DNA of 64,000 bases, taken from the NCBI GenBank assembly GCA_903862465.1, contig CAIOYH010000217.1:2608-66607 (forward strand), written 5' to 3'. Shown one piece after another: positions 8,692-59,990 of this stretch (positions are counted from its first letter, which is position 1; every line of letters starts with the position of its first letter). This DNA is from an uncultured bacterium (GTDB lineage Bacteria; Bacteroidota; Bacteroidia; Bacteroidales; CAIWKO01). A program made the position numbers and the translations under genes. The notes beneath the pieces are model-generated. The model ran no database searches. It saw nothing but the letters and a program-made list of their open reading frames with translations, and was not told the origin of the DNA.

Positions 8692-9423
8692 CTACATAAT
8701 CACCGAATCCCAAATTTCGCTCGGGGTTCCATACGTACTATGTTTTCCTTTAAACATATAGCGCACATAATACCATGCCCGCATGCCTTCTTGGCTTGGC
8801 TCAAAAACATGTTTATATAATCCTCTGAAAACAACACCGTCGTAAGCAAACTCCTTCAGGCTAGGTGCGATGGTTTGTTTTTGGTCGGTGATGGCTATAA
8901 ACACCTGTATGTCTTTCACAAAGCTGTCTTTGGCTTTGCTTTTTCTACTGCCAATTTGCACAATACTCACCTGAACAAGATGCGCTGCTTCTAATATGCG
9001 TCCAAACAAAATCATTTCCGTGAGGGCGAGAGAAGTCGCCGATAGTTTTTGGTCGGGCATCGTGAGCCTCATAATTTCTTTTTGTGTTTCCTTCACCTTG
9101 GGGTTGTTGCGGATATAACGGCTGATAAACAAGCGCAAACTAGTTCCATCAATTATGTTTTTATTTCCGCTTTCATATTCCTTACGGGCAAGACGCATCT
9201 CAAATTTTTCGGATGATTTGGAATTTTTGTTTCTTACAATCTGCCAAATAGCATCCCAACGCATTTTGTTTTTGCCGGGAGTGGCGGTGAGCAATATCCA
9301 TTCGTCGAAGGCGCGTTGCGGCAAGTCCCAACTAGCAAAATAGCTGCCTGCGGAGGTCACAAATTGTTGCTGCCAACCGTCAAATTCGCTGTTGGCATGT
9401 GGAATAAAGTCTTTCGAAGCCAT
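8692..9423 (-). CDS. Hypothetical protein with an FN3-like C-terminal beta-sandwich tail; first gene of the polysaccharide operon
   Basis: 243-aa ORF on the same strand as the operon. Its C-terminal strand pattern RAWYYVRYMFKGKHSTYGTPSEIWDSVI resembles the FN3 F-G strands and the tails of the ORFs at 24554 and 44353. Confidence 0.5.
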   Translation of the reverse strand: MASKDFIPHANSEFDGWQQQFVTSAGSYFASWDLPQRAFDEWILLTATPGKNKMRWDAIWQIVRNKNSKSSEKFEMRLARKEYESGNKNIIDGTSLRLFISRYIRNNPKVKETQKEIMRLTMPDQKLSATSLALTEMILFGRILEAAHLVQVSIVQIGSRKSKAKDSFVKDIQVFIAITDQKQTIAPSLKEFAYDGVVFRGLYKHVFEPSQEGMRAWYYVRYMFKGKHSTYGTPSEIWDSVIM

Positions 9424-9653: not shown

Positions 9654-9833
9654 CAGGGGTGACCCTCCATATTTTGGGGGCTCCCCTTATTATTTAGGGG
9701 GATTCCCTAAATAAATTAGGGTCTTCCCTAAAAAACTCGGGGGATTCCCTGAACATCTTGGGGGCTTCCCTAAAATAACTAGGGGATACCCTAGAAACAT
9801 CAGGGGACTCCCTAAACATCTAAGGGATAAGCA
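9654..9833. repeat. Tandem array, about 9 units of 21 bp with a GGGGnnTCCC palindromic core
   Basis: The TTCCC/CTCCC cores fall at 9661, 9682, 9703, 9724, 9745, 9766, 9787, 9808 and 9829, an exact 21-bp spacing. Confidence 0.9.
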
Positions 9834-10799: not shown

Positions 10800-11150
10800 T
10801 TTAAGTTCCAAGATCCAAATACCACGGTACAAGACCCAAGATCCAAATTCCAAGCTCCAAATACCAAGGGATACCTCTACGAATTACGAATTTGCGAATT
10901 ACGAATTTTGACGCCGCGCCGAAAATCACAAAGTAAAGAATTGCCACGAAGACACGAAGACACAAAGTGACACAAAGTATTGCTATTCTTTATATAAAGC
11001 GTTTGAAATCTTCGTGTTTCCTAGCGGAATACTAGGCGGGCTTCGTGCCTTAGTGTCTTAGTGCCTTGGTGGTGGTTTTCTTAACTTGTGTCTTGAAACC
11101 CAAATCTTAAATCATAAATCAAAAATCTTAAATCAACAATTTCTTTTCAT
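10800..11150. repeat. Mosaic low-complexity 'word' repeat region (CCAAGATCCAAAT, CTACGAATTACGAAT, CACGAAGACAC, CACAAAGTGA, AAATCTTAAATC)
   Basis: Short 7-10-nt words are iterated with small changes. The same words recur at 24.2 kb and 32.0-32.5 kb. Confidence 0.8.
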
Positions 11151-11244
11151 TCTATAAAAAAGTAGTAATTTTATGCCTCTAAATCCGTTAGGTATAGCAA
11201 CAAATAGAAACATACAATCATTTATCGCAAAAGTATCACATTCC

Positions 11245-19404: not shown

Positions 19405-21546
19405 ATGACATCAAGATTGCATATATTATATATGGTACCGAATAATCTGTTTTATTGCGCAATCAATAAAAGGTTTATCTTTCAGGTAGTGTTGCTTTTA
19501 TTGCCTTTCACTTTGGTGGCACAAGTGAATACAACCAATTGTCCCAATAGTGATTTCTCCATGCATAACTTCACAAACTGGACCGGCTTTTATGGTATTG
19601 ATGGAGATTGTGGTAATACGTATGTTACGGGTATCAGTACGAATGCTAACCCCACCTTATCACATCATACCATTATAACTACCAATGGGTTTGATCCTTA
19701 TACGAATAATGGCTTACAACTAATACCTCCCGGAGTGGGACAGGTAGCTAAGTTAGGTAACAATGGAACCAATTGCGGTTATGAAGGCTTATCCTATCAA
19801 TTGACAGTTGACACCAATGTTAGCGGTTTATTTATTTACCATTTTGCTGCTGTTTTACAAGAACCCGGTCATCCCCCTAACGAACAACCCAAGTTTACGG
19901 TTCAAATTTTTGATGCTTTTGGCAATGTGATGGCAACTTCTTGTGCAAACTTCATCTATGTTGCAGGCACTCCGGGAATGAACGCTACGTGTAACGCAAA
20001 TATTTGTTGGTTCAATTGGAGAACTATTGGGATAAGTTTGAAGCAATACCAAGGACAGACAATTCGAGTGGTTTTCACAACCTATGATTGTACACGCGGA
20101 CAACATTTTGGGTATGCCTATCTGTATGCCTATTGTTATCCACGAAAAATCAACCTTAGATATTGCGCCAATAATGCTCAAGCAACACTTACAGCCCCTA
20201 GCGGCTTCAATTATCTTTGGTCGCCGGGAGGTGCCACAACACAAAATCTAACCGTAAACAATCCTGTGAACAATACGCTTTATACCTGCATAATTACATC
20301 CCCAACCAATAATGCCTGCACAGACACCTTAAAAACTTTTATCACAATTAGTCCTACCTATAATCTCTCTCAAAATGCCACTATTTGTTCAGGGAGCAGT
20401 TATACCTTGCCCAATGGTACGGTGGTTTCAACCGCCGGTAGCTATCTGTCTCACTTGACTACCTTAGTTACGGGCTGTGACAGTAATATAACGGTCAACG
20501 TAAATGTAAATCCCAATATTACGCCAACATTTAACCCTGTAGCTCCTATCTGTTCGGGAGCCACATTAGCTGCCTTGCCTACCACATCTCTGAATGGTAT
20601 CACGGGAACATGGTCGCCTGCTTTGAATAATACCGCAACAACCACCTACACATTTACTCCATTCGGAGGGCAATGTGCTGTTACAACAACGATGACTATA
20701 ACTGTAACCCCCAATATTACGCCAACATTTAACCCTGTAGCTCCTATCTGTTCGGGAGCAAGCTTGTCTGCCTTACCAAGCATATCTCTGAATGGCATAA
20801 CAGGGACTTGGTCACCTGCCTTGAATAATGCGGCTACAACAACCTACACATTTACGCCGACCCTTGGGCTATGTGCCACACTAGCAACAATGACTATAAA
20901 TGTAAATCCCATTTTTACGCCAACATTTAACCCTGTCACCCCTATCTGTTCGGGAGCAACTTTATCTGCTTTGCCAACCACATCGCTGAATGGAATAACA
21001 GGCTTATGGTCACCTGCAATGAACAATACGGCAACAACTATCTACACATTTACGCCAACAGCAGGGCAATGCGCCACAACCGCTACGATGACGATAACCG
21101 TAAATCCAATTATCACTCCAACCTTTACTGCCGTACCCCCCATCTGTATTGGAGCAACAGTAGCTGCCTTGCCTACAACATCTTTGAATGGCATAACAGG
21201 AACATGGTCTCCTGCCTTGAATAATACAGCAACAACTACCTATACATTTACGCCTACCCCGGGACAATGCGCTTCAACAGTAACTATGACCATCACCGTC
21301 AATCCAAATATTACTCCTATCTTTCCTCCTTTAGGTCCCTATTGTGTTGGAGCAACACCGGCTTTACTAACAACCACATCAACCAATGGAATCACAGGAC
21401 TATGGAACCCTGCCTCAATTTCAACAGCAACCGCAGGAAACACCTTTTATACGTTCACCCCAACAGCAGGACAGTGTGCTACTGATACCAATATGTCTAT
21501 AATCATAAATCCAAACCCAAATCCAAGCAATATCTTTCATCAATAA
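19405..21546 (+). CDS. Secreted repeat-rich surface protein (five 66-aa Ig-like modules)
   Basis: Signal-like N-terminus (FIFQVVLLLLPFTLVAQ), a Cys-rich N-terminal domain, then 5 modules PNITPTFNPVAPICSGA...GQCA..TMTITVN. Ends in NPNPNPSNIFHQ. Confidence 0.7.
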   Translation: MTSRLHILYMVPNNLFYCAINKRFIFQVVLLLLPFTLVAQVNTTNCPNSDFSMHNFTNWTGFYGIDGDCGNTYVTGISTNANPTLSHHTIITTNGFDPYTNNGLQLIPPGVGQVAKLGNNGTNCGYEGLSYQLTVDTNVSGLFIYHFAAVLQEPGHPPNEQPKFTVQIFDAFGNVMATSCANFIYVAGTPGMNATCNANICWFNWRTIGISLKQYQGQTIRVVFTTYDCTRGQHFGYAYLYAYCYPRKINLRYCANNAQATLTAPSGFNYLWSPGGATTQNLTVNNPVNNTLYTCIITSPTNNACTDTLKTFITISPTYNLSQNATICSGSSYTLPNGTVVSTAGSYLSHLTTLVTGCDSNITVNVNVNPNITPTFNPVAPICSGATLAALPTTSLNGITGTWSPALNNTATTTYTFTPFGGQCAVTTTMTITVTPNITPTFNPVAPICSGASLSALPSISLNGITGTWSPALNNAATTTYTFTPTLGLCATLATMTINVNPIFTPTFNPVTPICSGATLSALPTTSLNGITGLWSPAMNNTATTIYTFTPTAGQCATTATMTITVNPIITPTFTAVPPICIGATVAALPTTSLNGITGTWSPALNNTATTTYTFTPTPGQCASTVTMTITVNPNITPIFPPLGPYCVGATPALLTTTSTNGITGLWNPASISTATAGNTFYTFTPTAGQCATDTNMSIIINPNPNPSNIFHQ
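20512..21502 (+). repeat. Five tandem 198-bp coding repeats (66-aa modules)
   Basis: Unit anchors at 20512, 20710, 20908, 21106 and 21304. Confidence 0.85.
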
Positions 21547-21578: not shown

Positions 21579-23147
21579 ATGAAAAATTCGAGATTATTAT
21601 TACTAGTTTGTCTTTTCGTTTTTGTGTCAATAAAAGTAAAAGCACAAATCCCGAGTGGATATGTTCAAAATCCTGCAACCCAATCGGTGTGCAAAGATGA
21701 AATTAAAGACTATTATATTTCAGGAAGTATTGGTTCTACCTTTACGTGGGAAATAGTTGCTCCAGGTGGTGCTGCCAATATCATTTTACCGGCTTCCGGA
21801 AATGGACCGGTGTTCGGTGTGAATCTCGACCACATCCAAATCATTTGGGGGACGGACGGCGTTTTCACCTTACAAGTTACGGAGACCACGAATTCAATAC
21901 CGGCGTGTAGCGTAACAAGAACCATGGTGATAAACGTAAACCCCAACATCACACCCACCTTTGCCGCTTTAGGTCCCTATTGTTTAGGCGCCTCGCCCGG
22001 TGTATTGCCTACAACTTCCACAAATTTATACACGGGGACATGGAACCCTGCAATCATATCTACAACACTTGTCGGAAACCTTACTTATACCTTCACGCCC
22101 ACAGCCGGACAATGCGCCACCACGGCTATCATGTCAATAACAATAAACCCATTACCTATTGCAACCGCCACCAACAATGGTCCTATCTGCGCCAACACCA
22201 CCTTATCTTTAACAGGCGGCACAAACGGTATGACAACTTACAATTGGTCAGGTCCGAACACCTATGCAAACACTACCCAAAGCCCCGTCGTTTCTGCCCT
22301 AGCCACCCCATCCATGTCCGGCATATATACCTTAACTATCAGCGACGGAACCTGCACCAACTCTGCATCTACCAATGTAACCGTTAACCCCTTACCCACT
22401 GCCATCGCCGCCAACAATGGTCCTATTTGCGCCAACACCTCTTTATCCCTAACAGGTGGCGCAAACGGCATGACCTCTTACTCATGGTCAGGTCCAAACA
22501 CATTTGCAAACAACACCCAAAGTCCTGTCGTTTCTGCAATTGCAACACCTGCAATGTCGGGAACCTATACTTTAACTATCAGCGACGGAACTTGTACCAA
22601 TTCTGCCTCAACAAACGTAAACGTCAACCCCTTGCCTACTGCCACCGCCACCAACAATGGTCCTATCTGCGCCAACACCACCTTATCCTTAACAGGCGGC
22701 GCAAACGGCATGACATCTTACAATTGGTCAGGACCCAACACCTTTTCAAACAACACCCAAAGCCCTGTCGTTTCTACCAACGCCACACCTGCAATGTCGG
22801 GAACCTACACCTTAACTATCAGCGACGGAACCTGTACCAACTCCGCATCTACCAATGTAACCGTCAATCCATTACCCATTGCCACCGCTTCCAACAACGG
22901 ACCTATATGCGAAGGGGCAACCTTATCCTTGCTCGGCGGCACAAACGGCATGACATCTTACAATTGGACAGGACCCAACACCTACGCAAACGCTACCCAA
23001 AGCCCCGTTGTTTCAACAAACGCTACGCTATCCATGTCAGGAACATACACCTTAACCATCAGCAACGGAACCTGTACCAACACAGCATCCACCAATGTAA
23101 CCATCAATCCTTTGCCCAACCCTTCAGGCATTTGGCATAATCCTTAA
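21579..23147 (+). CDS. Secreted repeat-rich surface protein (one 66-aa module plus four near-identical 80-aa Ig-like modules)
   Basis: Signal peptide MKNSRLLLLVCLFVFVSIKVKAQ, and 4 modules PLP.A.A.NNGPIC...YNWSGPNT...GTYTLTISDGTCTNSASTNVTVN. Ends in NPLPNPSGIWHNP. Confidence 0.75.
   Translation: MKNSRLLLLVCLFVFVSIKVKAQIPSGYVQNPATQSVCKDEIKDYYISGSIGSTFTWEIVAPGGAANIILPASGNGPVFGVNLDHIQIIWGTDGVFTLQVTETTNSIPACSVTRTMVINVNPNITPTFAALGPYCLGASPGVLPTTSTNLYTGTWNPAIISTTLVGNLTYTFTPTAGQCATTAIMSITINPLPIATATNNGPICANTTLSLTGGTNGMTTYNWSGPNTYANTTQSPVVSALATPSMSGIYTLTISDGTCTNSASTNVTVNPLPTAIAANNGPICANTSLSLTGGANGMTSYSWSGPNTFANNTQSPVVSAIATPAMSGTYTLTISDGTCTNSASTNVNVNPLPTATATNNGPICANTTLSLTGGANGMTSYNWSGPNTFSNNTQSPVVSTNATPAMSGTYTLTISDGTCTNSASTNVTVNPLPIATASNNGPICEGATLSLLGGTNGMTSYNWTGPNTYANATQSPVVSTNATLSMSGTYTLTISNGTCTNTASTNVTINPLPNPSGIWHNP
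22148..23107 (+). repeat. Four tandem 240-bp coding repeats (80-aa modules), very similar at the DNA level
   Basis: AACAATGG anchors at 22173, 22413, 22653 and 22893. Confidence 0.85.
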
Positions 23148-23170: not shown

Positions 23171-24166
23171 ATGAAAAAACAGTTCATCATAATTTGTTTA
23201 GTACTCCTTACGCTCCCAAGCAATGCCCAAGTGGACACTGTTTGCGTGGGTACTATCCATACCTATGGTGTAAATGGCAGCCTTGGCTCCACCTATACAT
23301 GGAATGTAAACGGCTGCACCATATTATCCAACCCTGCCACCAACAATTCCATTGATGTTCATTGGGACGCTGTTGGCATACATCCCATTTCCGTAACAGA
23401 AACCAACATCAATCATTGCAGCAAGACCATATTAGACTCCGTATTGGTTCTCCCCTTACCTTATGTCAACTTCGAAACTGACACAACCATCTGCTGCTCA
23501 ACCCAACCCTTCACCTTGATAGCCACCAATCCCAATGCCACCTACCTATGGCAAGACGGCTCCACAGCCTCCTCCTTCCCTGTCACCACAGCAGGAACCT
23601 ATTGGGTCCAAGTCTCCTTGGGCAATTCATGCTCCATCATAGATTCTATTCATGTCGATTGCGCCATAGTCCCGTCCGACAATTTCTTCCTACACGACAC
23701 CACACTTTGTGAAGGACTCCCTTTAGATGTCACCATCCCCAACTATTACAACTCAATCAGGTGGTCTGATGGAGACATACTCAGCTACACAAAGCGGTTT
23801 GAACTCCCCGGCTACTACTATGTAGAATTAAAAAGCCAATGCCTCTCCCTATTTAAAGACTTCAACCTATTCTACAAAGATTGCAATTGCTATTTATACT
23901 ATCCCAATGCTTTCACGCCCAACGAAGACAACATCAACGAATGCTTCGCCGCCAAATACGAATGCGACTTCGACTACTATCACTTCTATATCTACAACCG
24001 TTGGGGCGAACTCATTTTCCACACCAACGACCCATCCGCCTGTTGGGACGGCACCTACAAAAACCGCGTCGTTCCCCAAGGCGTCTATGTATGGATAGTT
24101 GATTACTCCGGCACCATCACCCACGGCATGCAAACTCGAAAAGGAACCGTCACGGTGGTGAAGTAG
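23171..24166 (+). CDS. Surface protein with a T9SS type B (gliding-motility-associated, CHU_C-like) C-terminal sorting domain
   Basis: Signal peptide MKKQFIIICLVLLTLPSNAQ, and a C-terminus YYPNAFTPNEDNINECF...FYIYNRWGELIFHTND...CWDGTYKNRVVPQGVYVWIVDY...KGTVTVVK. Confidence 0.8.
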   Translation: MKKQFIIICLVLLTLPSNAQVDTVCVGTIHTYGVNGSLGSTYTWNVNGCTILSNPATNNSIDVHWDAVGIHPISVTETNINHCSKTILDSVLVLPLPYVNFETDTTICCSTQPFTLIATNPNATYLWQDGSTASSFPVTTAGTYWVQVSLGNSCSIIDSIHVDCAIVPSDNFFLHDTTLCEGLPLDVTIPNYYNSIRWSDGDILSYTKRFELPGYYYVELKSQCLSLFKDFNLFYKDCNCYLYYPNAFTPNEDNINECFAAKYECDFDYYHFYIYNRWGELIFHTNDPSACWDGTYKNRVVPQGVYVWIVDYSGTITHGMQTRKGTVTVVK

Positions 24167-24214: not shown

Positions 24215-24490
24215 TTTATTACCACGGAGGCACTAAGGGCACTAAGTTACACTAAGAGAAATTAACCACATAGACACATAGGCACATAGGAGAAATATTT
24301 ATTGTGTTCCTGCCTGACTGCATCACGCATGCAGGCTTGTGTTTTTCACCTTGTGTAACTTGTGGTAAAGAAAACAAATAACCACAAAGGACACAATAGA
24401 AAGCACAAAGAGTACAACGTTTCTCTGTTTACCTCTGTGTTTTCCTCTGTTCACTCTGTGTTTAAAATATACTTCTATGTGGTAAGCCCA
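24215..24490. repeat. Mosaic 'word' repeat region between convergent genes (CACTAAG, CACATAG, CACAAAG, CTCTGTGT words) with a central hairpin CTGCAT-CACGC-ATGCAG
   Basis: Iterated 8-10-nt words and partially inverted copies (ACCACATAG ... CTATGTGGT). Confidence 0.75.
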
Positions 24491-24553
24491 AAAAAAAACA
24501 GGAACACATCGTATCCCTGTCTTTTCCAACATCCTTTTTTGTCTTGTTTTTCC

Positions 24554-25171
24554 TCATCTGATGGTGAATAATATCGGATCGCTACCTTCCATCAAACCAT
24601 CAGAAGTCACCGAACGAACTCTGAACCAGAGTTTCGTATCGGGCGTATAACCTTTCAGATTGGTTTTGCGTTGGGTGGAAGCACCTGCAAAAAGCCAATC
24701 TTTGTCCGCAGCAGGTAAAGTGCTTGTGGCACTCACCTGCCAAATATAGGCGCCTGCTTTTGGAAAAGCAACGCATCCTATAGTCATTTCACCTGAAGCC
24801 ACGCCCGCGATAATCCAAAAATCATCCCGTTGCGATGGAATAGGTTCCTTAGATAATTCAAAACCACTACTGATAAGTATGTTTTCGTTCCCTTGAGCTA
24901 TCCCCTCAACATACCATGCCAATCTACGTAAAACATTTACACTTTTTTTCTTCGACTCTTTTAAGTCTGCTTTATCTTGCTTACTTCCATCTTTAGCTGT
25001 AGCGGCTTTGCTTTCGGTATCATCCAAAGCGGTTTTCAGGCTGGCTAAAGTGGGATCAGGAGTCACGAAATTAGGATTGTTGGACATTTTGGTGTGAACC
25101 GAACGTCCGAACACAATGAGCGCCGGTGCTGCCAGGCGCCAAAAACTTAACAAAATTCTTTTCATTCTCAT
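24554..25171 (-). CDS. Hypothetical protein with an FN3-like C-terminal tail
   Basis: C-terminus TKLWFRVRSVTSDGLMEGSDPILFTI has an FN3 F-G strand-like pattern. An alternative start is the ATG at 25087 (MSNNPNF...). The longer form would add a signal-like MRMKRILLSFWRLAAPALIVFG. Confidence 0.5.
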   Translation of the reverse strand: MRMKRILLSFWRLAAPALIVFGRSVHTKMSNNPNFVTPDPTLASLKTALDDTESKAATAKDGSKQDKADLKESKKKSVNVLRRLAWYVEGIAQGNENILISSGFELSKEPIPSQRDDFWIIAGVASGEMTIGCVAFPKAGAYIWQVSATSTLPAADKDWLFAGASTQRKTNLKGYTPDTKLWFRVRSVTSDGLMEGSDPILFTIR

Positions 25172-25312
25172 AACTGTAATTTTTTTTTGATTAATATTTA
25201 TGTTGACTTAAAAAAAGGATGTTCTTTTGGAATTTGAAGCAAGGTGTCGTTTGCAACATCTGTAAATTCAGGATGCTACCTGCAATTTTTTCCGAAACAA
25301 ATCGAACCCGAT

Positions 25313-25627
25313 CCCTACCACTTGTCATCGGGTCCATACTACTTGTAAAAGGGACAAAACCACTTGTAACAGGTAGATTACTTGTTGTAAAAAATACAAT
25401 ACCATGTGTAAAAAGTAGATTACTAGTTGTAAAAAGTACAATACCACTTGTAAAAGGTCGAATACCACTTGTAATCGTACCACTACCACCTGTAATTGGT
25501 CGAATACCACTTGCAATCGGACCAATACCACTTGTAATCGGTCGAATACCACTTGTAATCGGACCACTACCACTTGTAATCAGACCAATACCACTTGTAA
25601 TCGGTCGAGTTTCAATTGAAATTACGT
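25313..25627. repeat. Tandem array, 15 units of exactly 21 bp (consensus ACCACTTGTAATCGGTCGAAT)
   Basis: CTTGT anchors run from 25321, 25342, 25363 through to 25594, all 21 bp apart with no indels. Confidence 0.92.
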
Positions 25628-25968
25628 GCATGCCAATTATTACTGACTGAATATCAGTTGCCTTTAAGAATTTACAATATCCTATTGACGGGAAGCTAGC
25701 ACGAAAACCAACCAACCGCATAGCTTCGACCGAAATACGCAAATTTGTATTCTGATTCGTTTTGCTCCCATACAGATGGAACAGCAAAAAGCAAAACAAG
25801 CCTTGTTTCCGATTCAAATTTGCTATGTTGTTACTTTTATTCATATTTATTTTAGAATTGTCAAATATTCTTTTTACTTTTGCTCTCTCATTTTTGGTTT
25901 TGCTGTTGTTTTTTTTTGCTTTCCGAAAACAAAAGTACATCCAATGAAAAGCGAAATGCTAGGCATAT

Positions 25969-26031
25969 CAGTTAACGGTAGGATTTTTTCAGTTAACGGT
26001 AGGTTTTGGACAGTTAACGGTAAAATGGGGT
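25969..26031. repeat. Three 21-bp direct repeats CAGTTAACGGTAgg (GTTAAC palindromic core)
   Basis: Copies start at 25969, 25990 and 26011, about 235 bp upstream of the 26266 operon. Confidence 0.85.
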
Positions 26032-26265
26032 TTTTATAAATTGAGATTTTTTTTGTTTTTTTTATTGTTGAATTAATTTTATTTGTAATTTTACAGGCTG
26101 AAATATTTAAATAGGTTTTATATTGAAAAGAGTGGAAAAATATTATGGGTCGAAGCAGCCGCTGAACCTCAACCTTAACGTAAAAATGGGTGGTTTATTA
26201 ATTGCCAAAACTCCAAAAAGAAAAATAAATTTTGATTAGCATTTACAAGCAAAAAATTAAAAACA

Positions 26266-29013
26266 ATGGAAGAAAGAAACTGTCTCATATTAACACAGTA
26301 TAGGAATGATTATGCAGGTGATTATAATGATTTCATTGGCAAATATTATCATTTCCCTGTTTCCTTAAATAAAAACTATCTTAATGAATTCGAATCATTA
26401 CCAATTGAAGTGATTTTCAACGAACCTGAAAAACATGGGAAGGGGGAATTTTATGCTTATGGAAAAATTAATAACAAACCATTCGTTGACAAGAAAAACC
26501 AAGACCATTATTTCGTAGAAATTTCAGATTTCAAATTTTTTTCTAAGCCTGTTTACTTTAAAAATGAAAAGGGTGAAATATTAGAAAAAATATTCAATTC
26601 TGAATTTTATAATTACAATAATGCCGTAAGGAAAATTCGACCACAATTTTTAGACGAATTGTGTCTTGACGGAGGAATACTTTTAAACTTCAAAGCCGAT
26701 GCACACCTTGTCCAAGTTTTAGGAGAACAACTTATCGCATCCGAACGAGTTGGAATTTTAGAGTTGGTAAAAAATTCAATAGATGCAGGAGCATCATATT
26801 GCAATGTGAAAATTGAAAAAGTTCCGCCCCCACTTCCAGCAATATCCGAAACGCTTTATGAATTCAATGAGTTTGATGGACCCGTTATTGTCATTGAAGA
26901 TGATGGAAGCGGAATGACAAAGGAACAAATTGAAATGGGGTGGTTAAGACCTGCCTCCACATTAAAAACAAATGTGAAAGAACAATTAAAGCGTGAAAGA
27001 GAAAAAGCAATCAGAGAGAATAAACTTGAAACCTTTGAGAACTACTTAAAAATTATCAGAGCAGAAAACAAAGGAAGAATACCATTAGGAGAAAAAGGAG
27101 TAGGAAGATTTGCAAGCCATCGCCTTGGAAAAAAATTAATTATCAAAACCAAAATTGAAGAAAACAACTATGAGTATGTTTTGAAAATTGATTGGGATGA
27201 TTTTAATTTTCTTAATGGTTCACATAAAGATTTAGATGATGTGAAAGTTACTTTGACACGACAATCACCTTCAAGGGATTACGGAATAAAAAACAGCGGA
27301 ACGCAACTAATAATTTTTGGTGGCAGAGAAGGATTTGAATTGACAGAAAATGAAATTAAAGAAATAAACCGGACAATTTTAAAACTCAATTCTCCAAACC
27401 CAAATCCAAATTCCAAAACTCCTACTTTCAAAGCATCATTCTTTTGCCAACAAGTAAAAGCGTTAGACGAAGAAATTACTTACAAGAAATACGACCCTGT
27501 ATTTAGTATTTACGGGATTGTTGACGAGTGGGGAAATTTCGAATACGAATATATTTTTGAACCGCCTTACAATGTTCCATTAGCAAGTTTTAATCGCAAA
27601 GACCAAAAGTTAGATTTAAAAACCATTGACAAAAATCATTGGTTCAAAATAGAGAACGAAAGAAAACTTTGGCGTAAACCCGCTTGCGGTTCTTTCTACA
27701 TCCACATAGATGTTTGGTATCGAGATAGACCTTGGATAGGAAATTCAGATGATGAAAAAGAATTCAAACATTATTTAGAAGATTACGGAGGATTATCAAT
27801 ATACAGAGATGGAATAAATGTTTTTTCAGCAGAGAACGGAACAGAAACAGATTGGCTAGGTTTGCGGCAAAGACAAATCAAGCAATCATACAGAATGTCA
27901 TATTACCATATGATGGGTAATATTGAAATTGACCAATCCACAAACATTGACCTGATAGATAAAACGAATAGAGAAGGCATGATTAAAAATCGTGCATTCA
28001 ATGACTTGACCGAATTGGTGAAAGCAGTTACATATTTTCTTGAAATAGATTACATCGGCAAGAGAGACGAATACAATAAATTGTCAGGCGATTTAGTAAG
28101 AGAACCAAAAGCACTTAAAGGATTTCCAGACCAATCGGCAAAAATTATTTCAAACATAAATGCCAACTACGACATTGCTTTAGACCGCTATAAACTTTTT
28201 GAAAACATAAAAGAACTTGGCGACATCAGCGAAAGAAAAGGCAAGTTGGTTGATTTGTCAAAGTCATTACACAACCTTGAAGACAACTTAAAACAAATTC
28301 AAGAAGTGCAAGAAATGCTTACAGAGCAAGCAGGTTTTGGTTTAGGCATTGCCGTTGCATTGCATGAAATCAGCAAAACTACTTCAAATTTTTATTACGG
28401 AGTTTTAGAAGTGCTTGAAAGCGGCAAATTTGAAAAAATAAAGCTTGAAGATTTAAAGGACACTTCACAAGCATTAGAATCTGAAATTCTAAGACTAAGT
28501 CCGCTTAGAGCATTAAGAAACGAAGACCCAATACAATTCAAGGTTTCAAAATCGGTTACTTATGTTCTTTCAGTTTTCAAAAGAAGGTTCAAGGCATTAA
28601 ATATTGATTTTGATTACAACACCGACCAAGATTTTGAAATCAAAGCAAGGTATGGAGCATTAAATCAAATACTCACAAACCTATTTGACAACTCTTGTTA
28701 TTGGATGGACAAGCCGGAAATAATAGACCGGAAAATCAGATTGAGAATTGATGCAGCCGACAGAACAATAATTGTTGCTGACAATGGAGAAGGAATTCAC
28801 GATTCAATTATGCCATACTTGTTTCAGCCTGGATACAGCTTAAAATTTCCACCAAGCGGCTTAGGGCTTTATGTTTGTAAACACTACATGAATATAATGA
28901 AAAAGAGAGGAGATATTTATTTGGCAAAGGAAAGAGACCAGATTCAAGGATTAAATGGAGCTCAATTCTTACTTGACTTTTCAAAAGTAATTTCCAATGA
29001 AGATGAAAAATAA
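26266..29013 (+). CDS. Dual-GHKL protein: unassigned N-terminal domain, MORC/Hsp90/MutL-style ATPase module, and a C-terminal histidine-kinase core (DHp + CA)
   Basis: Bergerat motifs ELVKNSIDAG (N170), IEDDGSGM (D212-G216) and GEKGVGRFA. C-terminal H-box ALHEISKT (H700), N box NLFDNSCYW, G1 ADNGEGI, G2 SGLGLYVCK. Confidence 0.75.
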   Translation: MEERNCLILTQYRNDYAGDYNDFIGKYYHFPVSLNKNYLNEFESLPIEVIFNEPEKHGKGEFYAYGKINNKPFVDKKNQDHYFVEISDFKFFSKPVYFKNEKGEILEKIFNSEFYNYNNAVRKIRPQFLDELCLDGGILLNFKADAHLVQVLGEQLIASERVGILELVKNSIDAGASYCNVKIEKVPPPLPAISETLYEFNEFDGPVIVIEDDGSGMTKEQIEMGWLRPASTLKTNVKEQLKREREKAIRENKLETFENYLKIIRAENKGRIPLGEKGVGRFASHRLGKKLIIKTKIEENNYEYVLKIDWDDFNFLNGSHKDLDDVKVTLTRQSPSRDYGIKNSGTQLIIFGGREGFELTENEIKEINRTILKLNSPNPNPNSKTPTFKASFFCQQVKALDEEITYKKYDPVFSIYGIVDEWGNFEYEYIFEPPYNVPLASFNRKDQKLDLKTIDKNHWFKIENERKLWRKPACGSFYIHIDVWYRDRPWIGNSDDEKEFKHYLEDYGGLSIYRDGINVFSAENGTETDWLGLRQRQIKQSYRMSYYHMMGNIEIDQSTNIDLIDKTNREGMIKNRAFNDLTELVKAVTYFLEIDYIGKRDEYNKLSGDLVREPKALKGFPDQSAKIISNINANYDIALDRYKLFENIKELGDISERKGKLVDLSKSLHNLEDNLKQIQEVQEMLTEQAGFGLGIAVALHEISKTTSNFYYGVLEVLESGKFEKIKLEDLKDTSQALESEILRLSPLRALRNEDPIQFKVSKSVTYVLSVFKRRFKALNIDFDYNTDQDFEIKARYGALNQILTNLFDNSCYWMDKPEIIDRKIRLRIDAADRTIIVADNGEGIHDSIMPYLFQPGYSLKFPPSGLGLYVCKHYMNIMKKRGDIYLAKERDQIQGLNGAQFLLDFSKVISNEDEK

Positions 29014-29884
29014 ATCAATAGACATATTTCTAATTGATGATGAGTTTCCTAAAACTTCGGAATTCACATCGGCATCAATTTATGATTCAGCTATTCATTC
29101 AGACAATCTCTATCAACTTGCAATTTCTCAATCATGGAAAGGCCTACAACCACTTCAAAAGTTGATAAAAGATATTGTAACAAGTAACCCATTTAAGGAA
29201 AATCACATTCAGTTGACTGGTTATACAAAGCCAACACAATGTTTGACAGATATTGAAAACGGAATCAAACCTGATCTTATAATTTACGATTGGGAATACG
29301 GAATGCCTAACCCGAGTGAATCGCAAGAATGGTTATTGGATATTCTTTCAAAGACAAAAGCATTTGTTTTTATTTACTCAAAAGTAAGGGATGAAATCCC
29401 TCAATTTTTGAATAAAAAAGTGTTTGATGAATATGCTTCAAGGTTTCAATTGTTTGAAAAAGGAAATACAAAGATGTCCATTTTTTCTTCTGAAGAGTTT
29501 ATTTTTCAATATATTTTAAATAGACTAAGTAATGAATATGAAATAATAATACAAGGAGAAAGAATTCAGTTTAAACAAAATGGATTTCTTAAAAAAGCAG
29601 AAGATATATTGTATTTAGAAAAAATTTTGGGGAAGAAAAAATTATTGCAAATATTAAAGGAAAAAGTAAAAATTATTTCAGATGAAACCCTAGTAAAGAT
29701 ATTATCTGAATTTAATGAAAAAATATACTTTGATGAATTGAACAATTTGCTAATTACAGCTGATTCAAAAATGCTAATTACAAAATACAAACCTGAAAAA
29801 TTACTAACGTATTTAGAAGTTGTTAAACAATACGGAATCAAAACTTTGGCAAGTGTTTTAGAGATAGGAATAGCAAAGATTTAA
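28997..29884 (+). CDS. Receiver (REC)-like domain protein with an unassigned C-terminal half
   Basis: IDIFLIDDE (D14, D15), PDLIIYDWEY (D98) and AFVFIYSK (S128) follow the REC beta1/beta3/beta4 pattern, with a long insert between beta1 and beta3. Its start overlaps the stop of the upstream gene by 17 nt. Confidence 0.5.
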   Translation: MKMKNKSIDIFLIDDEFPKTSEFTSASIYDSAIHSDNLYQLAISQSWKGLQPLQKLIKDIVTSNPFKENHIQLTGYTKPTQCLTDIENGIKPDLIIYDWEYGMPNPSESQEWLLDILSKTKAFVFIYSKVRDEIPQFLNKKVFDEYASRFQLFEKGNTKMSIFSSEEFIFQYILNRLSNEYEIIIQGERIQFKQNGFLKKAEDILYLEKILGKKKLLQILKEKVKIISDETLVKILSEFNEKIYFDELNNLLITADSKMLITKYKPEKLLTYLEVVKQYGIKTLASVLEIGIAKI

Positions 29885-29886
29885 TT

Positions 29887-30426
29887 ATGAGTGTCATACT
29901 TAAACATATAGGAAATAAATGGCAACCTATTCCTCCATTCAATAGGTCTGATAAAAAAACTATTGAAGAAGATTTAAAGGATGGTGAAGCGGAATATGAA
30001 GTGTGTGCAGAATTCATACATATCGTGGAGTGGGATGGAAAGCCACCCCTATTGATTGAACTGACTTTTGATGAAATTGCCGCATTAAAGCAAGACCCAA
30101 ATGAATTTAGAAAAAATCGAGAATTTTATCGTTCTAAATGTTTTTTGTGGATTATTGATAATCATTCATTAAAAATTGCACGAGAGAAAATTAGAAATGA
30201 AAAACGGGCTCTTGATCCAGATTATATATGCCATACTAACTTAACTAATGCAGGACAAGCATATATTGGGGGAGAAATATTATTTGGCGAAGATGGATTC
30301 ATATATATAAACTATTATTCTGATAGATACGGAGGCAGAAATACCCCCGAAGAACTTTGGATAGCATCCAAGGGGATTTTTAGAGATTTAGGCTATACTC
30401 ATCTTGTAGATTTCTTAGAATTATGA
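29887..30426 (+). CDS. Hypothetical protein (179 aa), function unknown
   Basis: ORF packed between its neighbours (3-nt gap upstream, ATGA overlap downstream). I recognise no motif; the only conserved-looking patch is CHTNLTNAGQAYIGGE...YYSDRYGG. Confidence 0.55.
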   Translation: MSVILKHIGNKWQPIPPFNRSDKKTIEEDLKDGEAEYEVCAEFIHIVEWDGKPPLLIELTFDEIAALKQDPNEFRKNREFYRSKCFLWIIDNHSLKIAREKIRNEKRALDPDYICHTNLTNAGQAYIGGEILFGEDGFIYINYYSDRYGGRNTPEELWIASKGIFRDLGYTHLVDFLEL

Positions 30427-31448
30427 ACCTTTACTCAATTGACATTTTCAGCGGTTGTGGTGGTCTTACAGAAGGAATGCACCAAGCCAATTTCAAAACT
30501 CAAATTGCATTTGAGATTGATGAAATTGCCTCAAAAGCATATCACCTAAACCATCCTGACACACTAGTTATTACAAAAGATATTCGGAATGTTTCTATTT
30601 TAGAAATACAAAAGCAACTGAATGGCAAAACGATTCATTTATTAGCCGGTTGTCCACCTTGTCAAGGTTTTTCTTCAATAAGAAGGCTTAATAGAACAAC
30701 ACCTGTTGCTGATGATAGAAATAATTTGATTATGGAGTATGTGCGTCTTGTGAAAGCATTGAAACCATACACAATAATGTTAGAGAATGTTCCGGGTCTT
30801 ATTGAATATGATTTATTTAAGGAAGCAATTAATATTTTGACAGAGGAACTAGAATATAATGTGGATTTCAAAGTAGTGAATGTGAAAAATTATGGAGTGC
30901 CTCAAAGCAGAAGAAGATTAGTTTTGGTTGGCTCACGATTAGGTGAAATTAATGTTGCCGATCCGGTAAATGGAAAAAGAACCGTTAGGCAAACAATTGG
31001 CAATTTACCATTACCTGAAAATTCTAATGACCCAGTTCATAAAATATTTCCAACTCACAAACCACACATTCAGGAACGAATTGAAATAACTCCCAAGAAT
31101 GGAGGTAGTAGAAAAGATTTGCCTGGAAAATATTTATTGAAATGTCACAAAGCTGAAAATGTTGGATTTAATGATGTATATGGCAGATTACGTTGGGATG
31201 ATTATTCAACAACTATTACAGGCGGGTGTCTGAATCCTTCAAAAGGAAGGTTTTTACATCCCGAACAAAATCGAAACATTTCAGCTAGAGAAGCTGCCCT
31301 ACTTCAATCCTTTCCTCCGGATTATAAATTTCCAACAAATATTCCATCGTCGAAACTTGCTTTATTGATTGGTAATGCATTGCCTCCTAATTTTAGTTAC
31401 ATTCAATCTGAAAACATAAAAGAACATTTATTGATACACCTTGGCTGA
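30423..31448 (+). CDS. dcm: DNA (cytosine-5)-methyltransferase
   Basis: Motif I DIFSGCGG, IV GCPPCQGFS, VI ENVPG, VIII QSRRR, IX REAALLQSFP, X GNALPP. Confidence 0.92.
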   Translation: MNLYSIDIFSGCGGLTEGMHQANFKTQIAFEIDEIASKAYHLNHPDTLVITKDIRNVSILEIQKQLNGKTIHLLAGCPPCQGFSSIRRLNRTTPVADDRNNLIMEYVRLVKALKPYTIMLENVPGLIEYDLFKEAINILTEELEYNVDFKVVNVKNYGVPQSRRRLVLVGSRLGEINVADPVNGKRTVRQTIGNLPLPENSNDPVHKIFPTHKPHIQERIEITPKNGGSRKDLPGKYLLKCHKAENVGFNDVYGRLRWDDYSTTITGGCLNPSKGRFLHPEQNRNISAREAALLQSFPPDYKFPTNIPSSKLALLIGNALPPNFSYIQSENIKEHLLIHLG

Positions 31449-31561
31449 TATCTTTTTCCGTCACTAAAACTTTGCAATTTCGAACTAAGTAAATAGTAGT
31501 TTGCAACTCCCCAATAACAAAAGCTTAATTGACAATAAAAACCTGATAATTTTTTAAAATC

Positions 31562-31972
31562 ATGAATGAAGATGTAATATACTATCCTAGATTAAAGAGG
31601 TTTCTTGATAAAATAGATGATCTTACCTGTAAGGAAATAGACGCACTAATAGCTGTTTTGCAAAAAGAAGCACAACTGAGAGAGACGAATGGGAGAAAGG
31701 TATTTGAAGATTCGAAATCAGGTGTCACCATTGAAGAATTTACAAAAGAAATAGAGATGACACAAAGATTAAAATATGCCTTGATGGAAATGGGAGATCA
31801 TAGTGGTCGGTCTTTTATTGACGAAATCACTCGGAAAAAATTTCTTCAATTCAGAAATGTTGGAGAGAAATCTTGGTCGGAATTCATAGACATAATAGAT
31901 AATCGTTTACAAGGCACCCGCTTCGAAGCTCAGCAGGATTTTCTAAGAAAGCACTTTAAGATAGAGCACTGA
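31562..31972 (+). CDS. Small protein with an RNA polymerase alpha-CTD-like helix-hairpin-helix segment
   Basis: MTQRLKYALMEMG...IDEITRKKFLQFRNVGEKSWSEFIDII resembles the alpha-CTD pattern (R..N.L....I..I..L......NFG.KS..E). Confidence 0.4.
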   Translation: MNEDVIYYPRLKRFLDKIDDLTCKEIDALIAVLQKEAQLRETNGRKVFEDSKSGVTIEEFTKEIEMTQRLKYALMEMGDHSGRSFIDEITRKKFLQFRNVGEKSWSEFIDIIDNRLQGTRFEAQQDFLRKHFKIEH

Positions 31973-32012
31973 TACCCCTTGGGTTTGCCCATAAAGATAA
32001 TTCGGATATAAC

Positions 32013-32465
32013 GTCTCTGTGTATCTCCAAATCTCTGTGTAGCCCTGTGTAACTTACCCTGTATTAAAATACCAAGCTCCAAAGACCAAATACCAAATCC
32101 CAAGGTTTGCCACTACGAATGTTCGAATTACGAATGGCTAAAATATCTCTGTGTATCTCCAAATCTCTGTGTAGCTCAGTGTAACTTACCCTGTATTAAA
32201 ATACCAAGCTCCAAATACCAAATACCAAATCCCAAGGTTTGCCACTACGAATGTTCGAATTACGAATGACTAAAATATCTCTGTGTATCTCCCAATCTCT
32301 GTGTAGCTCAGTGTAACTTACCCTGTATTAAAATACCAAGCTCCAAATGCCAAATACCAAATCCCAAGGTTTGCCACTACGAATGTTCGAATTACGAATG
32401 GCTAAAATATCTCTGTGTATCTCCCAAGCTCCGTGTAGCTCTGTGTAACTTACCTCAAAACGAAA
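32013..32465. repeat. Tandem 132-bp repeat, 3 full units plus a partial fourth
   Basis: ATCTCTGTGTATCTCC anchors at 32013, 32145, 32277 and 32409. The units differ at only a few positions and are built from the same words as the 10.8-kb mosaic. Confidence 0.92.
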
Positions 32466-32518
32466 TCCCAAGCTCCAAATCTAAATTCTAAAATCATAAA
32501 TCTAAAATCCTCAGCCCA

Positions 32519-44352: not shown

Positions 44353-45030
44353 TTATGTGATGATAAAACTCAGCGGTATGCTGGGCGGTCCCGATTCTCC
44401 TGAGGGACTTATATACCATGTGATTAGCCACGCTTCTTTGCCCTTATCTTCCGGTTTGAAAATCAATTTGTAAGACACAGAGCCGGTAGTATCTAAGGTA
44501 ATATATTTATCCTGAGTTGGTTCAGGGGCGCCAAAGGCAACTATAGCCATTTTGCGTCCAATTTTCGCCACATCCACCGGGCGCGATTTTGCTGAGTCGT
44601 GCGGCGGATTGGGATTGGAGGTGAAAATCTGCACAACCGATTTACTTCGCGAACTCTCCGAATTGTGAGGTGCGAATTTCGGTGCAGGCACTTTTCTGCG
44701 CCTTGAGGAATCTTTATGAATGTAAAGTGACCCATAATCAGCACCTAACAATTTGACGTCGAGATGCGCTTTCAGTTGCTTTTTCAATCCATTCATTTCG
44801 GGACGAAAAATTTTATACGCTTTTTTAATATTCATTATGGTCGGATTGGTATGCTTTGTGGGGTTTAAATACTCGTCATAGGCGGCGTCAAAATCCGCTT
44901 TATGGGTATCAATTGAAACCACACGGGATTCGGGTATCAAAAGCCGTTCACGTGTACCGGGCGTGTGCAAATAGGGTACGGACACGTCGGTTTCGATTTT
45001 AAAATCCATATATTCCTGACTTAATAACAT
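44353..45030 (-). CDS. Hypothetical protein with an FN3-like C-terminal tail
   Basis: C-terminus KEAWLITWYISPSGESGPPSIPLSFII matches the tail pattern of the ORFs at 8692 and 24554. Confidence 0.5.
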   Translation of the reverse strand: MLLSQEYMDFKIETDVSVPYLHTPGTRERLLIPESRVVSIDTHKADFDAAYDEYLNPTKHTNPTIMNIKKAYKIFRPEMNGLKKQLKAHLDVKLLGADYGSLYIHKDSSRRRKVPAPKFAPHNSESSRSKSVVQIFTSNPNPPHDSAKSRPVDVAKIGRKMAIVAFGAPEPTQDKYITLDTTGSVSYKLIFKPEDKGKEAWLITWYISPSGESGPPSIPLSFIIT

Positions 45031-45224: not shown

Positions 45225-45520
45225 TCATTTTCATCTGCCTTAAAATATATTGGATTCTATTTAAAAGGAATCCTATTGCGTTTTAATAGAATCCTATTGC
45301 GCTTAAATACAATCCAATTCAGCTTATGCAGAAACCAATTTCGCTTAAACAGGAACAAATTCAACTTAAACAGAAATCAATTCACATTAAAGCGAAACCA
45401 ATTCACATTAAACATAAAACAAATCACATTAAACCGAAATCAATTCACATCAATCCGAAATACATTCACATTAAATCGAAACACATTCAAATTAATCCGA
45501 AACCAATTTAGATAAATCTA
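45225..45520. repeat. Tandem array, about 14 units of 21 bp (right-hand consensus AATCAATTCACATTAAACCGA)
   Basis: (C/A)TTAAA anchors at 45239, 45260, 45281, 45302, 45323, 45344, 45365, 45386, 45407, 45428, 45449, 45470 and 45491. Confidence 0.9.
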
Positions 45521-45760
45521 AAACGAATGGAAGTTATGCTCAAACGAATTGAAAACACATCGTCTTGTTTCTGTTAAAAGCAAAAATAAAAGTATAATAA
45601 GCTTAAAATAAAACAATTCAAAGATTGACCTATTGAATATTTACTTGAGCTGAATGCATATAAGAAAAGGTAAATAGCTTCTGAGCTAAATAAAAATCCA
45701 AGCATTCAACAATAAAACAATTCAACAACAAAACCATTTCACTATATACCCTATCTCATT

Positions 45761-45843
45761 CAATGACCAATAAATGACAATCAAATGACAATCAATGACC
45801 ATAAATGACCATTAATGCCCACCAAATGACAACCCAATGACCA
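45761..45843. repeat. Eight AATGAC(C) motifs phased at 10-11 bp
   Basis: AATGAC/AATGCC at 45762, 45773, 45784, 45794, 45804, 45814, 45825 and 45836. This is the same word as the 60-kb array. Confidence 0.8.
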
Positions 45844-45855
45844 TCCTTAGGAGCC

Positions 45856-56242: not shown

Positions 56243-56528
56243 GGTATTTTTTTACTTGATAAATGAATTTCGTTATAAACGTTCAATAATAAAGTATCGT
56301 ATGTATTTGGGAAATAAAAAAAGCAGACTTTCGTATGCTTTAGATATCAAGAAAAGAGTTTAAACCTTTATTGATTTTCCACATCAAATCGTCCGCTGAA
56401 ACCTTATATAAAGGTGTAAACTATCTTTCCATACTTGCGAACCGTTTCCAGCGGATGTGGTGATAGCCATACCTGAATTCCAATAGACATCGCGAAGTTT
56501 GCCGGAAGCACTTTACAAGTGTCGAAAG

Positions 56529-56738
56529 CTTCCGTCAGTGGTGAAATATACTTTTTGTAACTGTCGAACCCTTCCGTCAGTAGTGAAATATGAGTTTGGT
56601 AACTGTCGAACCCTTCCGTCAGTAGTGAAATATGAGTTTGGTAACTGTAAAAGTTTTCCGTCAGTAGTGAAATATGACTTTGGTAACTGTAAAAGTCTTC
56701 CGTCAGTAGTGAAATATAGGTTCGACACTTAGGAATAC
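56529..56738. repeat. Tandem array, 5 units of 42 bp (CTTCCGTCAGTAGTGAAATATGAGTTTGGTAACTGTCGAACC)
   Basis: CTTCCGTCAG anchors at 56529, 56571, 56613, 56655 and 56697. A related inverted word, GTTTGCCGGAAG, lies at about 56497-56508. Confidence 0.9.
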
Positions 56739-56841: not shown

Positions 56842-56928
56842 TGGTGCCCGGAACAGGACTCGAACCTGCACACCCTTGCGAATACTAGTCCCTGAAACTA
56901 GCGCGTCTACCAATTCCGCCATCCGGGC
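56842..56928 (-). tRNA. tRNA-Leu (anticodon CAG), CCA encoded
   Basis: The reverse complement folds as a cloverleaf: acceptor GCCCGGA/TCCGGGC, anticodon stem CTAGT/ACTAG with loop TTCAGGG, a long variable arm, and T-loop TTCGAGT. Confidence 0.9.
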
Positions 56929-56975
56929 GATTTCGTTATTTTTGAATAGGTAATGCTTATTGATTGTCGTATAAA

Positions 56976-57023
56976 TTTAGCAGTTACTAGTTGTCGGTTG
57001 AATGATTACTAGTAACTGCTAAA
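56976..57023 (-). other. Perfect 16-bp-stem hairpin between the two tRNA genes
   Basis: TTTAGCAGTTACTAGT (56976-56991) and ACTAGTAACTGCTAAA (57008-57023) are exact reverse complements. Confidence 0.8.
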
Positions 57024-57029
57024 GTCAAT

Positions 57030-57116
57030 TGGTGCCCAGGACAAGACTTGAACTTGCACGTCCGTAAGGACACTACCCCCTCAAAGTAGCGTGTCTGCCA
57101 ATTTCACCACCTGGGC
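57030..57116 (-). tRNA. tRNA-Leu (anticodon GAG), CCA encoded
   Basis: Acceptor GCCCAGG/CCTGGGC, anticodon stem CTACT/GGTAG with loop TTGAGGG, a long variable arm, and T-loop TTCAAGT. Confidence 0.88.
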
Positions 57117-59905: not shown

Positions 59906-59990
59906 GATGATTTTTCTTTTCAATGTAAGGACTTCAAAAGTACAAATTTTTAATGAACTCAAAGAAATATTTACCTGATTTTTTTTAGAC

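Follow-up and report, generated by a model that had tools for sequence, protein, structure and literature searches.

Why would a single bacterial chromosome carry several long tandem arrays that are unrelated in unit sequence and agree in unit length? The question is raised by a stretch of 64,000 nucleotides from an uncultured bacterium of the Bacteroidales (contig CAIOYH010000217.1 of assembly GCA_903862465.1, positions 2,608 to 66,607; the whole stretch is called the window below), in which an array of 21-bp units, designated A2, lies upstream of a minus-strand gene, designated p205. An earlier note on this DNA, made from the sequence alone, had grouped A2 with four other arrays under a common rule, namely a fixed period, unrelated units and a position upstream of minus-strand genes. 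We find that the 21-bp period is the only invariant property of the arrays, and that the rule tracks a gene family whose products combine a helical N-terminal domain (N-domain) with an FN3 domain; the position 5' of genes was borne out, the strand is incidental.

An exact 21-bp period in unrelated arrays

The following arrays were delimited in the window (coordinates are those of the window).

25316–25609, unstranded: array A2 (focal), 14 units of 21 bp, no indels
25968–26030, unstranded: mini-array A2b, 3 units of 21 bp, CAGTTAACGGTAGG, 360 bp from A2
9661–9828, unstranded: array A1, 8 units of 21 bp with the dyad core AGGGGAnTCCCCT, strong curvature predicted
45236–45508, unstranded: array A3, 13 units of 21 bp, unit AATTCACATTAAACCGAAATC
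56525–56738, unstranded: array A4, a 42-bp unit in about 5 copies, flanked by two tRNA-Leu genes on one side and a glycosyltransferase gene on the other
59991–60755, unstranded: array A5, 24-bp units interrupted by 7-bp indels over 765 bp, upstream of an operon for an OmpR-type response regulator and a histidine kinase

The extent of A2 was established with Tandem Repeats Finder (TRF), an ungapped repeat search, an in-register print and autocorrelation. Its unit, TACCACTTGTAATCGGTCGAA, consists of a conserved core of 12 bp, TACCACTTGTAA, followed by 9 variable bp, and A-rich variants (GTAAAAAGTA) occur in the drifted left half of the array (25337–25441). The 15 units in perfect phase counted earlier were reduced to 14 clear ones, the preceding unit (25295–25315) being degenerate and only about 61% like the A2 unit; the exact 21-bp register without any indel was confirmed.

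Autocorrelation gave top lags of 21, 42 and 63 bp in the intergenic regions of A1, A2 and A3, of 42 bp only at A4, and of 24 and 48 bp at A5. The four companions of A2 had been said to share its period or a related one, and this is true of A1 and A3 (21 bp). The halves of the A4 unit are 0.10 identical, which makes it a true 42-mer without 21-bp substructure and its membership in the 21-bp class doubtful. A5 is outside the class, its 24-bp period with indels (10–19%, mostly 7-bp AATGACC insertions) being off the 21-bp phase. The distances from A1, A2, A3, A4 and A5 to the next start codon are 238, 145, 206, 283 and 86 bp, respectively, in agreement with the range of about 90–290 bp reported before.

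The number of arrays is indeed, as had been suspected, far above expectation. Eight arrays of at least 100 bp are present in the window, four of which have a period of 21 or 42 bp, two are coding (198 and 240 bp), one has a period of 132 bp and one of 24/48 bp. A control set of unrelated aroK-centred loci, 486 kb in total and drawn largely from other Bacteroidota but in part from further phyla, yielded none.

The arrays accompany a family of genes

Arrays A2, A1 and A3 each precede a small gene.

24554–25171, minus strand: gene p205, downstream of A2, 205 aa; basic helical N-domain (about residues 1–100), linker and C-terminal FN3 domain
8692–9423, minus strand: gene p243, downstream of A1, 243 aa; helical N-domain, linker and FN3-like sandwich
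44353–45030, minus strand: gene p225, downstream of A3, 225 aa; distant relative of p243 through the C-terminal domain

None of the three products matched a family in Pfam, NCBIfam or PHROG. The AlphaFold models of p205 and p243 have a common architecture, in which a helical N-domain is connected by a disordered linker to a seven-stranded sandwich that matches FN3 by both sequence profile and fold. The net charge of the p205 N-domain is about +8 (our own count). The C-terminal domains of p243 and p225 are weakly homologous (hhalign E = 0.003); sequence homology of p205 to p243 or p225 was not significant in hidden Markov model or hhalign comparisons, and the likeness of p205 and p243 is seen only at the level of the fold. 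The p205 family comprises 2649 clusters at 50% identity (E ≤ 1e-10), a number that includes some FN3-only matches inside large multi-repeat proteins; the best matches are mostly full-length proteins of about 204 aa.

The association of array and gene was followed outside the window at 31 metagenome loci with p205 homologues (31–39% identity) and at closer relatives; these loci carry L numbers below. In all, about 40 homologous loci spanning 31–92% identity were inspected, and nearly every one has an array 10–740 bp upstream of the gene. Where a metagenome homologue of p205 had more than 200 bp of upstream DNA, an array was present 68–737 bp before the start codon in 26 of 28 cases; the remaining pair (L055/L056) has a decayed array with the 21-bp autocorrelation peak still present. 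Arrays were also found at the closer p205 relatives L001, L065–67, L070/71 and L077. A homologue of p225 (50% identical; L074/L075) is preceded by two 21-bp arrays, a homologue of p243 (41% identical; L076) by 21-bp arrays with the core CACCGGTG, and a p225/p243-like gene (L054) by an array of 13 units. The rule thus extends to a minimum of two gene families, and probably to three, whose relationship is distant at best.

At the family loci the periods were 21, 42, 63 or 105 bp, TRF also gave higher-order ones of as much as 126 bp, and indels mostly stood at 0%. Among the 44 arrays of 100 bp or more in 433 kb of family loci, 41 had a period divisible by 21. Their 42-mers consist of two 21-mers that have diverged (0.54 identity at a shift of 21, versus a background of 0.25), and the 21-mers have no 7-bp substructure of the short tandemly repeated repetitive (STRR) kind. 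Periods near 31/32 or 52/53 bp were absent, which fits a fundamental unit of 21 bp. With 10.5 bp per turn of B-DNA, no integer length below 21 bp completes full turns of the helix. Different clades have unrelated units, so that the combination of unlike sequences and a fixed period described for the window recurs far beyond it.

No recurrent domain was found among 58 neighbouring open reading frames (ORFs), and the neighbours vary from locus to locus; the pair of array and gene is therefore the unit of conservation. Integration linked to tRNA genes was considered and rejected, as a tRNA gene is present at only 3 of the 31 loci. Such a gene lies a few hundred bp upstream of the arrays in L065 and L076 and about 1.5 kb upstream in L070; another 27 of the 31 loci are without one.

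Unit sequence, turnover and copy number

Array units generally have a conserved core of roughly 9–14 bp followed by a variable spacer. Palindromes without a loop are common among the cores (CACCGGTG, AAGCAGCTGCTT, CATGCATG, GGGAnTCCC), and each core in the 64-kb window is private, that is, found only in its own array.

The closest genome representative, L001 (bin AlinenLipids_bin-6511), is 96% identical to the window over 7.7 kb. Its orthologous array has exactly 14 units and the same flanks and is more homogeneous; the copy number is thus unchanged (14 each) despite a divergence of about 10%. The homology spans 24236–26033, with insertions or different DNA on both sides in the window, and includes the sequence upstream of A2.

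25610–25967, minus strand: upstream unique sequence, 93% identical to L001

Mini-array A2b is found where the block shared with L001 ends, immediately ahead of a −7-like motif, and its CAGTTAACGG triplet is also present in L001.

Arrays turn over rapidly and are common to loci whose N-domains are at least about 75–90% identical; the core of A2, for instance, is kept in L077, where the N-domain is about 76% identical. In one clade, L035/L036 and L040 (N-domains 74–77% identical) share 42–49% of the 9-mers in the array versus 8–13% of those in the flank between array and ATG, which suggests constraint on the array sequence in that clade.

The comparison of copy number between relatives that the earlier note had called for gave a divided answer. 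Differences in whole units were found in three pairs, amounting to 168 bp (L074/L075), 42 bp (L058/L059) and 42 bp (L042/L053). In the first of these, the array has 7.5 copies in L074 (5460–5617) and 15.5 copies in L075 (4633–4958); the flanks are otherwise collinear, and the 168 bp correspond to 8 units. No change was seen between the window and L001, or in A3, which is identical in two other assemblies (three in all). Short-read assemblies may collapse arrays. Assemblies break or leave runs of N inside arrays (L065 at 1946–2045, contigs of P0027–P0036, the start of L077), so that copy numbers from short reads are minimum estimates; contigs carrying p243 homologues are mostly shorter than 3 kb.

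The gene itself can be mosaic. Between p205 and its counterpart in L065 (2332–2943), nucleotides 1–269 are 62–77% identical and nucleotides 270–569 are 92–97% identical, and the array is entirely different. The breakpoint is sharp, at about codon 90, and falls where the helical N-domain gives way to the linker/FN3 part. The mosaic identity together with the different array indicates that array and N-domain were replaced together.

The DNA that borders the L001-like block was also inspected. The segment 18782–24236 is an insertion relative to L001 with genes at 19405–21546, 21579–23147 and 23171–24166, two of which contain coding repeats (198 and 240 bp). On the other side, the CAGTTAACGG triplet is directly followed by an island of low GC content (26034–32000, 31–34% GC) that L001 lacks. 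Its genes include those for a protein of 915 aa with two GHKL ATPase domains (26266–29013) and for a C-5 cytosine DNA methylase (30423–31448), and it is probably a defence island.

Phased protein-binding sites as a tentative reading

To what purpose, then, would such arrays be maintained? We tentatively read them as batteries of protein-binding sites, phased on one face of the helix, that act in cis on the adjacent gene, and we give this reading somewhat less than an even chance. The module would consist of a 21-bp-phased array followed by a small gene for a helical plus FN3 protein, present many times per genome in an uncultured Bacteroidota lineage. As the period equals two turns of B-DNA, every unit shows the same face of the helix, and the units could serve as in-phase sites of an operator, iteron or centromere-like kind for the adjacent gene. 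Cooperative loading of a protein along one face of the DNA would then either determine how the gene is expressed or give rise to a nucleoprotein filament. We infer the binding of a protein, its identity and the regulatory outcome from the observations above.

Two candidates for the binder can be put forward. The first is the basic helical N-domain of the gene's own product, to which the replacement of the N-domain together with the array and the private core of each array point. The second candidate is a regulator of the LytTR type. The A2 unit, read as ACCACTTGT plus 12 bp, matches the LytTR operator pattern, and with a matrix built from 45 published LytTR sites the p-values were 0.014 for A2 and 0.004 for the array of L001. 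A2 (with its L001 orthologue) is the only one of about 28 arrays to score, and the match may therefore be due to chance; the generic LytTR consensus is so permissive that a match to it says nothing. On a P0029 contig, a stand-alone LytTR gene of 141 aa is located directly upstream of a p243 homologue, the two being separated by a gap of 428 bp. With the other arrays unmatched, the consensus uninformative and a LytTR gene on one contig only, LytTR is to be taken as a lead and not as a classification.

Several observations weigh against phased binding sites. Fold and structure searches for the N-domains returned FN3 matches only and recognised no DNA-binding fold. Regarding LytTR, the approximately 26 other arrays did not match the matrix, no gene for LytTR or another DNA-binding protein recurs among the 58 neighbouring ORFs or is present among the window ORFs scanned, and LytTR operators are known with 2–3 sites whereas the arrays have 5–25. 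The joint replacement of array and N-domain is equally expected from physical linkage alone, and the pattern of core and variable spacer could partly reflect a higher-order repeat structure instead of selection. L046 and L048/50/52 encode proteins that are about 80% identical and have changed unit sequences, and such turnover demands many fast-changing specificities. Finally, one of the closer relatives of p205, L068/L069, has neither an array nor 21-bp periodicity.

Self-recognition, spacer, leader RNA, by-product or coding sequence

The arrays and proteins might form self-recognising pairs of a class not described before, in which the basic, fast-evolving N-domain binds its own private array and polymerises along one face of the DNA; this we consider unlikely. 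Array and N-domain would then be exchanged as a specificity cassette, and the many orthogonal pairs of each genome would be heritable switches or chromosome-marking filaments and not operators of the ordinary kind.

To about the same degree improbable is a structural or tunable spacer that has no sequence-specific binder and is selected only for being an exact multiple of the helical repeat. Gaining or losing a unit would move flanking elements further apart or closer together with no rotation of one against the other, or the units would produce a coherent bend or superhelix, and copy number would tune expression in the manner of promoter variable-number tandem repeats (VNTRs). The spacer accounts well for a period that is the sole invariant among unrelated unit sequences and for lengths that differ between close relatives by whole units (168, 42 and 42 bp). 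The constancy elsewhere speaks against it, with 14 units in both the window and L001 and A3 identical in three assemblies, as do indels of 1–9 bp in the flanks of more diverged pairs, where the overall phase is not strictly kept. A spacer of this kind also leaves unexplained why only this gene family has arrays, and does not predict that the cores of one clade are conserved above the neighbouring flank.

Predicted curvature is divided on the matter. It was calculated as a path in a wedge model, and the values are indicative only. Strong curvature, as a bending spacer would have it, was predicted for A1, L049, L050, L065, L075 and the second array of L054; A2, L001, L057, L042 and L076 were predicted to be as straight as random DNA or straighter, which tells against the spacer and led us to reject A-tract curvature as a general property. 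The planar curvature that the earlier note had expected from one A-tract per unit was therefore not recovered in the wedge model for A2, its L001 orthologue and several others, and is limited to A1 and some of the remaining arrays.

Candidate promoter elements on both sides of the array favour a spacer. The −7 motif of Bacteroidetes has the consensus TAnnTTTG. In the 350 bp upstream of 24 arrays this motif occurs 16 times on the gene strand, versus 5.1 expected, and 6 times on the opposite strand. Upstream of A2 it is present as TACTTTTG (25930–25937, gene strand), with the CAGTTAACGG triplet just upstream. The other side of A2 carries a short element between the array and the gene.

25172–25315, minus strand: spacer from array A2 to the start codon, with GAACATCCTT at 25216–25225 on the gene strand

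The element GAACATCCTT is conserved in the window and L065 and has one or two substitutions in L068 and L070. Given as GAACATCCTTTG, about 55 nt before the ATG, it is kept in four leaders that otherwise do not align, again allowing one or two substitutions. It resembles a −33 element and may have a promoter role. A scan for sigma-70 promoters gave results at chance level.

The same excess of TAnnTTTG on the gene strand upstream of the arrays (16 versus 5.1) would be expected if the arrays were transcribed within a long 5' leader, for example as a series of sites where an RNA-binding protein, perhaps the gene product itself through its basic N-domain, controls translation or stability. We judge this quite unlikely. 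Many arrays fold, as RNA, with z-scores of −4 to −10, in line with a leader; these values follow from the dyad cores, and loop-less palindromes suit double-stranded DNA rather than hairpins. The folding is moreover heterogeneous (z = −0.8 for A2 and above +1 for L070, L054, L041 and L075), and RNA structure as a general property was rejected on this ground and for lack of an Rfam match. An exact period of 21 nt has no rationale in RNA, and the conserved −33-like element of four lineages is located downstream of the array.

Very unlikely, and placed slightly lower still, is the possibility that the arrays are neutral by-products of slippage or unequal crossing-over in the recombination-prone 5' region of a mobile, fast-evolving family, with 21 bp reflecting a mutational bias. 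The rapid turnover of unit sequences, the breaks and gaps of assemblies at arrays, the family member that lacks an array and the recombination at the locus evident from the mosaic gene are all compatible with such an origin. It does not readily explain a rule common to at least two, probably three, at most distantly related families, the persistence of arrays over 31–92% protein identity or the empty 486-kb control, and no mutational process is known that yields 21 bp and its multiples only, across about 25 independent arrays.

Lastly, it is highly improbable that the arrays encode heptad-repeat peptides, such as the 249-aa ORF with PITSGIG repeats on the minus strand (25191–25940) ahead of the FN3 gene. 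The period equals seven codons, this ORF is uninterrupted in L001 as well as in the window, and gene callers sometimes call such ORFs; the substitutions in its unique N-terminal part (7/4/12 by codon position) have a weak third-position excess. Those in the C-terminal part (1/5/3) do not follow suit, indels occur at 25207 and 25926, and the ORF has no family match. Fully open frames are restricted to A2 (two frames) and A4 (one frame), with at least one stop per frame in A1 and A3 and at least five in A5. As a consensus 21-mer has a chance of about 70% of being open in a given frame, open frames mean little either way. The earlier note had argued from open frames that the arrays are non-coding; the conclusion stands, the argument is at chance level, and the case is carried by the stops and the absence of a bias modulo 3. 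No gene-strand frame is open in L036, L037, L040, L047–49 and L052, each of the three gene-strand frames of the L049 consensus unit is interrupted by a stop, the opposite strand has open frames just as often, and in 26 arrays the variation between units has no bias modulo 3 (the permutation p-values look uniform). Gene-strand stops, the lack of a strand preference and the lack of a codon-position bias led us to reject coding heptad repeats; the arrays are non-coding.

Other features of the window

The ORFs of the window include DUF4476 and Por_Secre_tail domains, and the nearest relatives of the window are metagenome-assembled genomes of Bacteroidota. Immediately upstream of A4 are two tRNA-Leu genes (anticodons CAG and GAG, 56842–57116).

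Sites of the OmpR/PhoB type are typically direct half-sites about 10 bp apart. A5, 86 bp upstream of the operon genes 59228–60034 and 57954–59231, is based on AATGACC words at spacings of 10 and 14 bp; the word AATGAC also makes a 10/11-bp array at 45760–45845.

Short tandem words are further found in word-rich intergenic stretches at the 3' ends of genes (10803–11212, 24229–24463 and 32014–32509). The words are CCAAATA, TACGAAT, CACGAAGA, CTTAGTGC, CACATAG and AAATCAT, and the stretches include a 132-bp unit repeated 3.3 times. L001 and L065 have equivalent 3' words, for example three copies of ACACATAG about 70 bp past the stop codon of the p205 orthologue. These stretches are reminiscent of the heptamer repeats in cyanobacteria and Beggiatoaceae (PMC4679880).

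Implications

If functional, the arrays would be a cis-element that is recognised by its geometry, an exact period of two helical turns, and not by its sequence. They would provide a handle on, or a function for, a large unannotated group of Bacteroidota genes (thousands of clusters at 50% identity), would explain why assemblies break at these loci, and would represent a natural set of orthogonal pairs of a DNA array and its partner.

Comparison with known systems

The arrays were compared with the repeat systems that they resemble. They are not clustered regularly interspaced short palindromic repeats (CRISPR), since the units stand head-to-tail without spacers and no cas-like domains were seen in the ORFs scanned, and they are not Rep-associated iterons, both as the earlier note had maintained. 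The iterons of plasmids and phages are alike in being phased direct repeats of 17–22 bp with private sequences; unlike at iterons, the product of the adjacent gene matches no Rep family, nothing like an origin was seen, and the surroundings are chromosomal housekeeping genes.

Contingency loci, such as the 7-bp repeats upstream of hmw in Haemophilus influenzae and the TAAA tract of nadA in Neisseria, contain VNTRs that likewise form a 5' repeat tract of a multigene family; their copy number varies between strains, as that of the present arrays does in three pairs. Their units are of 1–7 bp (slippage-prone, 1–9 bp), whereas the arrays have units of 21 bp with a period that is fixed across unrelated sequences, and, unlike at contingency loci, the copy number is stable in two comparisons (the window with L001, and A3 in three assemblies).

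LytTR operators consist of 9-bp direct repeats separated by 12 bp, e.g. ACCACTTAC-12-ACCACTTGC, and the repeats of different systems agree in length and spacing but little in sequence (PMC6193735). The operators of AgrA, ComE and HdrR/BrsR share the 21-bp period of direct repeats with the arrays, and the A2 unit, ACCACTTGT plus 12 bp, conforms to ACCACTT[AG]N, the consensus in the literature. The LytTR spacing (sites of 9 bp, 12 (11–13) bp apart, period 21–22 bp) agrees with the exact 21 bp seen here; apart from the one P0029 contig, a nearby regulator gene was not found, either among the window ORFs scanned or among the 58 neighbouring ORFs. LytTR sites occur as pairs about 10 bp upstream of the −35 region in an operon that encodes the LytTR protein, as opposed to the 5–25 copies here.

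Partition centromeres include parC/ParR of R1 and pSK41, tubC/TubR, and the heptad arrays of the omega repressor of pSM19035. The arrays differ from partition systems in that no ParA, ParM or TubZ was found and the gene stands alone; they are chromosomal, with varying housekeeping neighbours and several modules per genome, and the protein is of a helical plus FN3 fold, not ribbon-helix-helix or winged helix-turn-helix. In common with the arrays, such centromeres have helically phased repeats right upstream of the gene for the coating protein, and site and protein co-diversify. Full-text literature searches returned no account of arrays of the present kind in prokaryotes. We regard the module of gene plus array as an addition to the phased tandem arrays of binding sites that stand beside their cognate gene, with an appreciable likelihood that it stands further apart from them.

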